The notes under the pieces were generated by a model. The model searched no databases, was not told the origin of the DNA, and saw only the letters and a list, made by a program, of their open reading frames with translations. A program made the translations under genes and the position numbers. A stretch of DNA of 64,000 nucleotides, taken from the sequence record PV390659.2. One strand, 5' to 3'. Numbering within the stretch: the stretch's first letter is position 1; every line of letters starts with the position of its first letter. This document shows, in pieces, positions 11,248 through 12,108 of this stretch. The DNA is from Escherichia phage vB_EcoM_P8.

Positions 11248-11248
<1 letters not shown>

Positions 11249-12108
11249 TGAAACAATACCAATTTTTAATTAAAGATATCCTGGAAAATGGTTACGAAAC
11301 CGATGACCGAACAGGCACAGGAACAATTGCTTTGTTTGGTACTAAATTACGCTGGGATTTAACTAAAGGTTTTCCTGCGGTAACAACTAAAAAATTAGCA
11401 TGGAAAGCCTGTATTGCTGAGCTAATATGGTTTTTATCGGGAAGCACAAATGTCAATGATTTGCGATTAATTCAACATGATTCATTAATTCAAGGCAAAA
11501 CAGTCTGGGATGAAAATTACGAAAATCAAGCAAAAGATTTAGGATACCATAGCGGTGAACTTGGTCCAATTTATGGAAAACAGTGGCGCGATTTTGGTGG
11601 CGTAGATCAAATTATAGAAGTTGTTGAACGTATTAAAAAACTGCCAAATGATAGACGTCAAATTGTTTCAGCATGGAATCCGGCAGAACTTAAGCAAATG
11701 GCATTACCGCCTTGTCATATGTTCTATCAGTTTAATGTGCGTAATGGCTATTTGGATCTGCAGTGGTATCAACGTTCGGTAGATGTTTTCCTCGGTCTTC
11801 CATTTAATATTGCATCATATGCTACGTTAGTTCATATTGTAGCTAAGATGTGTAATCTTATTCCAGGAGATTTGATATTTTCTGGTGGTAATACTCATAT
11901 CTATATGAATCACGTAGAACAATGTAAAGAAATTTTGCGTCGTGAACCTATGGATTTATGCGAATTACAATTAAAATTTCCAGATGAATTTGATGAATGG
12001 GACACAGAATCGCAGGTATTTTGGTTGAGTCAATTCGCAAAGCCGCATAATTTTGTTCTTAACAACTATGTATCTCACCCTCCTATTAAAGGAAAAATGG
12101 CGGTGTAA
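11248..12108 (+). CDS. td: Thymidylate synthase, uninterrupted (no group I intron)
   Basis: 286 aa from [10 protein letters not shown]...; continuous ORF through the region where T4 td carries its intron; active-site PCH motif present. Confidence 0.9.

Follow-up and report, generated by a model that had tools for sequence, protein, structure and literature searches.

An uninterrupted td gene with an empty, predicted I-TevI homing site in a Tequatrovirus genome

In phage T4, the thymidylate synthase gene td is joined from two pieces, with an intron of about 1 kb and the I-TevI gene between them (NC_000866). In the window, the whole 64,000-nucleotide stretch of DNA that we analyzed, td appears as one reading frame. 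This locus raises the question of whether the gene truly lacks the intron, and whether it keeps a site at which the T4 intron could enter. We conclude, with a probability of roughly 80%, that the region is the intron-less thymidylate synthase gene of a Tequatrovirus, essentially vB_EcoM_BMB16, and that it carries an empty and recognizable I-TevI target.

Identity and continuity of the td gene

The open reading frame that contains td extends from a TTG codon at 11236 to position 12108 on the + strand. With the ATG at 11248 as the start, td (11248-12108, + strand) has 286 codons plus a stop, and its product begins with MKQYQ, as in T4 Td. When the protein was compared with the Pfam profile Thymidylat_synt (PF00303), residues 2-286 matched profile positions 1-266 of 266 (E = 5.7e-94; 314.6 bits against a cut-off of 24.3), the full-length match of a thymidylate synthase (ThyA/Td). 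Residues 1-286 also aligned with residues 1-286 of the T4 enzyme structure (PDB 1TIS; E = 6e-177), and the protein matched phrog_160 (E = 1.5e-123). Both ALPPCHMFYQF and YQRSVDVFLGLPFNIASY were found in the protein, identical to the T4 enzyme of PDB 1TIS. They contain the motifs PPCH, with the nucleophilic Cys, and YQRS.D..LG.PFNIASY, the catalytic-center motifs of thymidylate synthase.

The spliced T4 td (exon 1, 549 nt; exon 2, 312 nt) was aligned to the window gene without gaps. The insertion point of the T4 intron falls between 11796 and 11797 (GGT|CTT, + strand), and zero extra bases are present at that point. Alignments of the window to the intron-bearing phages EC121, T6, ESCO58, and fPS-90 break exactly at 11796|11797. 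The original prediction, which had described a single continuous 286-codon frame where T4 td is split by an intron of about 1 kb with I-TevI, is confirmed on both counts. The reading frame, the full-length Pfam match, and the ungapped collinearity with the spliced T4 gene agree for the window, and NC_000866 has an insert of 1017 nt with I-TevI inside. The td intron has 1017 nt in NC_000866/AF158101 but one base fewer (1016 nt) in further T4 records and in those of T6 and RB3; the extra base may reflect a sequencing discrepancy of the reference.

We also searched for an intron signal with Rfam. At the gathering threshold, no family matched in the whole 64-kb window, and a scan at E ≤ 1 over 10400-16300 (the td-nrdB stretch) gave nothing relevant. 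Neither a group I intron (RF00028) nor any other non-coding insertion was detected in td by these analyses. As a control, the 262-nt td intron of PD112 (2539-2800 of its td locus) was recognized as a true group I intron (73.8 bits on the Rfam model Intron_gpI), whereas the ORF-bearing td and nrdB introns of T4 were missed. Since the control missed these introns, the scan rules out compact introns only, and the absence of the intron from the window td rests on the continuous reading frame. The failure of the group I model to report the T4 td and nrdB introns (NC_000866) at the gathering threshold is presumably owed to the endonuclease ORFs in their loops. Thus, negative Rfam scans cannot exclude ORF-bearing phage introns.

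The same uninterrupted gene has been deposited independently. Over 12,861 nt, the window and vB_EcoM_BMB16 (PV102577), a Tequatrovirus, are the same except for a single mismatch (99.99% identity). The 861-nt td is 100% identical in the two and is annotated in BMB16 as a single thymidylate synthase CDS. There is no difference of substance between them, and the window is BMB16 or a near-clone of it.

Compared with T4, the window encodes the same enzyme of 286 amino acids in the same setting, with frd upstream and nrdA.2, nrdA.1, and nrdA downstream. Apart from the intron, the two genes differ in a swapped surface segment, td codons 235-268 (11950-12051, + strand). The segment has the same length in T4 and is unrelated in sequence, with 35 of 102 nucleotides identical (chance level). 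The overall nucleotide identity of td to T4 is 86%, and outside codons 235-268 it is 93% (708/759). The window-type segment (at least 90% amino acid identity) was found in about 156 phage records, with identities of 45-58% in other Tevenvirinae genera, and the T4-type segment in about 212 records, nearly all Tequatrovirus. All four combinations of intron state and segment type exist, as represented by T4, T6/EC121, T2, and window/RB32.

The predicted homing site and its likely function

The I-TevI site is 38 bp long; the enzyme binds a 20-bp region with the insertion point at its center, and its cuts lie 23 and 25 nt upstream (PMC2988022). Cleavage takes place at CA^AC^G, in which C1 and G5 are the critical bases (PMC5009752). 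In the window, the predicted homing site (11770-11807, + strand; -27 to +11 relative to the T4 insertion point) is unoccupied. It is identical to the T4 intron-minus site at 32 of 38 bases, without indels. The CAACG motif is read directly at 11770-11774 (+ strand; -27 to -23), and there are no indels from it up to 11796. This conforms to CNNNG, with C1 and G5 at the exact distance that places the nicks 23 and 25 nt upstream of the insertion point. We infer that the bottom strand would be nicked between 11771 and 11772 and the top strand between 11773 and 11774. The ungapped collinearity with the spliced T4 td is that of an intron-less allele with a predicted I-TevI site.

From -27 to +20, the window differs from T4 at seven positions. 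Six of these lie in the 38-bp site: -22 (11775, C in T4 and T in the window), -19 (11778, A to G), -6 (11791, T to C), -4 (11793, G to C), +3 (11799, A to T), and +6 (11802, G to A). The seventh, at +18 (11814, G to A), is outside the site. Every one of the changes is synonymous, and the protein sequence YQRSVDVFLGLPFNI is unchanged. The sequence quoted in the original prediction, TTCCTCGGTCTTCCATTTAATATTGCATCATATGCTACG, corresponds to 11788-11826. Its resemblance to the intron-minus homing site with several synonymous differences was borne out by the alignment to the T4 exon junction that had been proposed as a check.

Could a site with these changes still be used? In the 20-bp primary binding region, which includes the changes at -6 and -4, the window is identical to T4 at 16 positions. 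The I-TevI operator, identical to the homing site at 15 of 20 positions, is bound with equal affinity (PMC2988022). With 16 of 20, the window binding region would probably lie within this tolerance. For the spacer, each of 15 positions was substituted in turn in a study of the I-TevI nuclease and linker fused to TALE; positions 2, 6, and 8 were sensitive, and C3T was the only substitution at background (PMC4065259). Apart from the RB32 spacer, for which the activity was reduced, naturally occurring td spacers of phages were cut just as well as that of T4 (PMC4065259). These tolerance data are from Tev-TALE fusions rather than from native I-TevI. The window changes spacer positions 1 and 4, both of which were published as tolerant. 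An RB32-type site was considered for the window and was rejected; the RB32 sequence is different and far more diverged. The exact motif plus spacer of the window was not found in the Tev-mTALEN supplements.

The exon-2 half of the site also has natural precedents. The window sequence CTTCCATTTAATATTGCA (+1 to +26) is identical in the intron-less T2, and it is the sequence directly downstream of the resident td introns in fPS-90, ESCO58, and PD112. T2 is like the window in its uninterrupted 861-nt td and its CAACG motif. In contrast, the exon-1 half is TTTCTTGGT in T2 and TTCCTCGGT in the window, codons 235-268 of T2 are of the T4 type, and a different ORF lies between frd and td. T2 was reportedly used as an experimental td-intron recipient by Quirk et al. 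in 1989. The homology to T4 that flanks the window site amounts to 184 of 200 nucleotides upstream and 144 of 150 downstream. Judged from the sequence, the view that this phage would be a recipient of the T4 td intron in a cross is well supported.

The exon-1 end and a proposed course of intron transfer

The intron helix P1 is formed by the last six exon bases and the guide sequence GCCUGA, and the Rfam model places P1 there in the PD112 intron. With UUGGGU as the exon strand, six of six P1 pairs are formed (-4.1 kcal/mol as drawn). The last six exon-1 bases of the window are CTCGGT (11791-11796, + strand). With CUCGGU, two of the six P1 pairs are lost (+0.2 kcal/mol as drawn), and a competing hairpin is the minimum-energy fold. 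Thus, the window changes at -6 and -4 would weaken P1 unless they were co-converted. The original prediction had described the synonymous differences at the junction accurately, and this effect of two of them on P1 pairing was overlooked.

TTGGGT, the P1 exon strand, is present in all sampled intron-bearing alleles. The longer sequence TTCTTGGGT ends exon 1 in eight of eight such alleles (T4, T6, EC121, ESCO58, fPS-90, PD112, and two IMG/VR contigs). The exon-1 end varies among the intron-less alleles, which have TTCCTCGGT (window), TTTCTTGGT (T2), TTCTTGGGA, TTCCTTGGT, TTCTTAGGT, or TTTCTCGGC. The constancy of TTGGGT beside introns is by itself no proof of selection for P1, because co-conversion alone predicts it.

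The following course of transfer is proposed. In a mixed infection with an intron-bearing phage, I-TevI would bind around 11789-11808 and would then cut the CAACG motif (11770-11774) 23 and 25 nt upstream of the insertion point. The break would then be repaired from the donor. Under the double-strand-break repair model, the repair would copy the intron together with at least the donor bases from -23 to -1. This co-conversion would replace CTCGGT of the window by TTGGGT, which the intron needs for P1. Since CTCGGT mispairs in P1, a spliceable product would require the co-conversion. Homing itself would cure the mismatch, because the break lies 23-25 nt upstream and the repair must replace those bases with the donor's.

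An allele that may have passed through this course was found with a chimeric query, in which the window exons were placed around the T4 intron. The search detected intron-bearing phages with window-like exons throughout, the swapped segment included; EC121 and T6 are among them. The td intron therefore occurs naturally in alleles nearly identical to that of the window. The EC121 td is 98.5% identical over the chimera, and it is collinear with the window on both sides of the breakpoints at 11796|11797. The two phages share exons that are 97% identical (26 differences in 861 positions), the swapped segment, and a 68-codon ORF upstream of td. Unlike the window, EC121 has a 1016-nt intron with I-TevI and the intron-associated flank from -25 to +3.

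The differences between EC121 and the window are not evenly spread. Six of them fall within -25 to +3, at -25, -22, -19, -6, -4, and +3. Of the 2361 ungapped nucleotides compared, the 28 nt of this interval hold six differences and the other 2333 nt hold 77 (P about 3e-4). The left edge of the excess lies between -39, where the C of the window is kept, and -25, in the cleavage site, and the excess is on the exon-1 side. According to a published account of co-conversion, I-TevI stays on exon II while exon I is degraded (PMC2988022). The exon-1-side excess fits this bias, since I-TevI remains bound to exon II. Our results suggest that EC121 is a window-type allele after intron invasion, with a co-conversion scar at -25 to +3. 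This reading comes from a single comparison in which the donor and the ancestral recipient site are not certain; the ancestral recipient may not have had exactly the site of the window. In EC121, as in one intron-bearing IMG/VR contig, the cleavage motif at -27 to -23 is CAGCG and not CAACG as in the window, a synonymous change of CAA to CAG in an occupied allele.

Distribution of intron states, alternative readings, and the neighborhood

It has long been known that the td intron occurs patchily among T-even phages. We surveyed 50,697 phage records, and the counts given here are of records, some of which are RefSeq/GenBank duplicates. The window td matched 589 records, of which 383 have at least 80% of the gene at a single place (short bridged inserts included). 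The full T4 td intron was found in 197 records, and shortened td introns of 262, about 320, or about 445 nt in 38. By record, approximately 345 of 580 (59%) are without the intron; the full element is present in 34% and a decayed one in 7%. The window junction (11757-11846) is at least 99% identical in 127 records. Pattern scans of IMG/VR gave two intron-bearing and eight intron-less loci; as these are too few for frequencies, the counts of phage records were used. Most or all of I-TevI is missing from the shortened introns, which resemble stages of decay within the homing cycle. Among the sequenced T4 relatives tabulated in one publication, only T4, T6, RB3, and LZ2 are listed with intron-encoded endonucleases (PMC2993671).

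An uninterrupted td is the normal, long-known condition among T4 relatives, and the present sequence already stands in GenBank with td annotated as one gene. The weight that the original prediction had placed on it was too great, as most T4 relatives are intron-less and this has been on record for decades. The finding is correct, but it is an ordinary one, and nothing in it is new. The survey gives a useful view of the homing cycle within a single phage genus, with empty, full, and decayed-endonuclease sites. As a minor practical value, the phage would be a convenient natural recipient for homing experiments.

Other explanations of the empty site were weighed against this reading. If td were continuous only because of a fault in assembly or editing, and the phage itself had the intron, the same 861 nt would hardly be uninterrupted in an independently deposited genome, nor would the junction be common to 127 records. 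The reading frame is intact, a single clean breakpoint is seen in the collinear alignments to four intron-bearing phages, and no evidence in support of an artefact was found. We therefore consider the probability of this explanation to be negligible. A precise loss of the intron in the past, for example by recombination with a spliced-RNA copy, would make the empty site secondary and not naive. The decayed td introns of the relatives (262, about 320, and about 445 nt; 38 records) show that the element does degenerate in this phage group. However, after a precise loss the flank should still be of the intron type, TTCTTGGGT|CT, and at -22, -19, -6, and -4 the window matches none of the sampled intron-bearing alleles. 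The exact intron-type flank, where tested, was present in no intron-less record of the phage collection; the best single-piece matches were of the T2 type (96.7%). Based on these flank haplotypes, a recent precise loss was rejected as unlikely, and the chance that the empty site arose by precise loss at all seems very small. Loss by recombination with another intron-less allele is indistinguishable from never having had the intron.

It is also conceivable that the window allele is refractory. The synonymous changes, especially T to C at -6 and G to C at -4, together with those at -22 and -19 in the spacer, would then lower the binding or cutting by I-TevI, and the intron would not be acquired at high frequency. 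The window junction haplotype is indeed very common among intron-less phages (127 records) despite co-circulating intron-bearing relatives (197 records), CTCGGT is kept upstream of the intron in no sampled intron-bearing allele, and one natural td site, that of RB32, does reduce Tev activity. However, both critical bases of the motif and the spacing are intact, the spacer changes of the window are at tolerant positions, and the 16 of 20 identical bases in the binding region exceed the 15 of 20 of the equally bound operator. Furthermore, EC121 resembles just such an allele once the intron has entered it. The absence of CTCGGT beside introns is expected from an obligatory co-conversion of -23 to -1 and is silent on resistance. 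A refractory allele is thus a doubtful explanation. More speculatively, and with little probability in our estimation, the CTCGGT/CTTCCA haplotype might persist through partial protection from the td intron, as a naturally selected synonymous immunity allele in an arms race with the homing endonuclease. The protection might come from a lowered binding of I-TevI at -6 and -4. It might also come from rare repair events that keep the recipient exon-1 end, which would yield an intron without P1 and a thymidylate-synthase-deficient phage. Our preferred reading remains that of an intron-less allele with an apparently usable, empty I-TevI target.

Several other mobile elements of T4 are missing from the neighborhood of td. 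In the window, frd (10464-11045) precedes td, and nrdA.2 and nrdA.1 (12132-12675), nrdA (12666-14930), and an uninterrupted nrdB (14982-16160) follow it. Unlike T4, the phage has no segG between genes 59 and 32 (window 7766-7864). It also lacks mobE and nrdB.1 between nrdA and nrdB, where the gap (14931-14981) is only 51 nt, and the nrdB intron of T4 is not present in nrdB. In a cross, this 10-kb region would probably be a target for several T4 endonucleases. Since the phage is without several T4 homing-endonuclease genes in the same 10 kb, T4 markers across the region would probably be over-inherited.

The junction between frd and td differs as well. In T4, frd and td abut with no ORF between them. 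In contrast, the window has the 68-codon ORF (11042-11248, + strand), which overlaps the frd stop and whose own stop overlaps the td ATG (TAATG). This ORF is a full-length match to phrog_9550 (unknown function), and no Pfam match was detected for it. It lies outside the homing site. T2, T6, RB32, and ESCO58 have a different ORF of 115 codons at this place, and the RB32 annotation reads 'flanked by 9 bp repeat'. The frd-td junction has the appearance of a slot for variable insertions.
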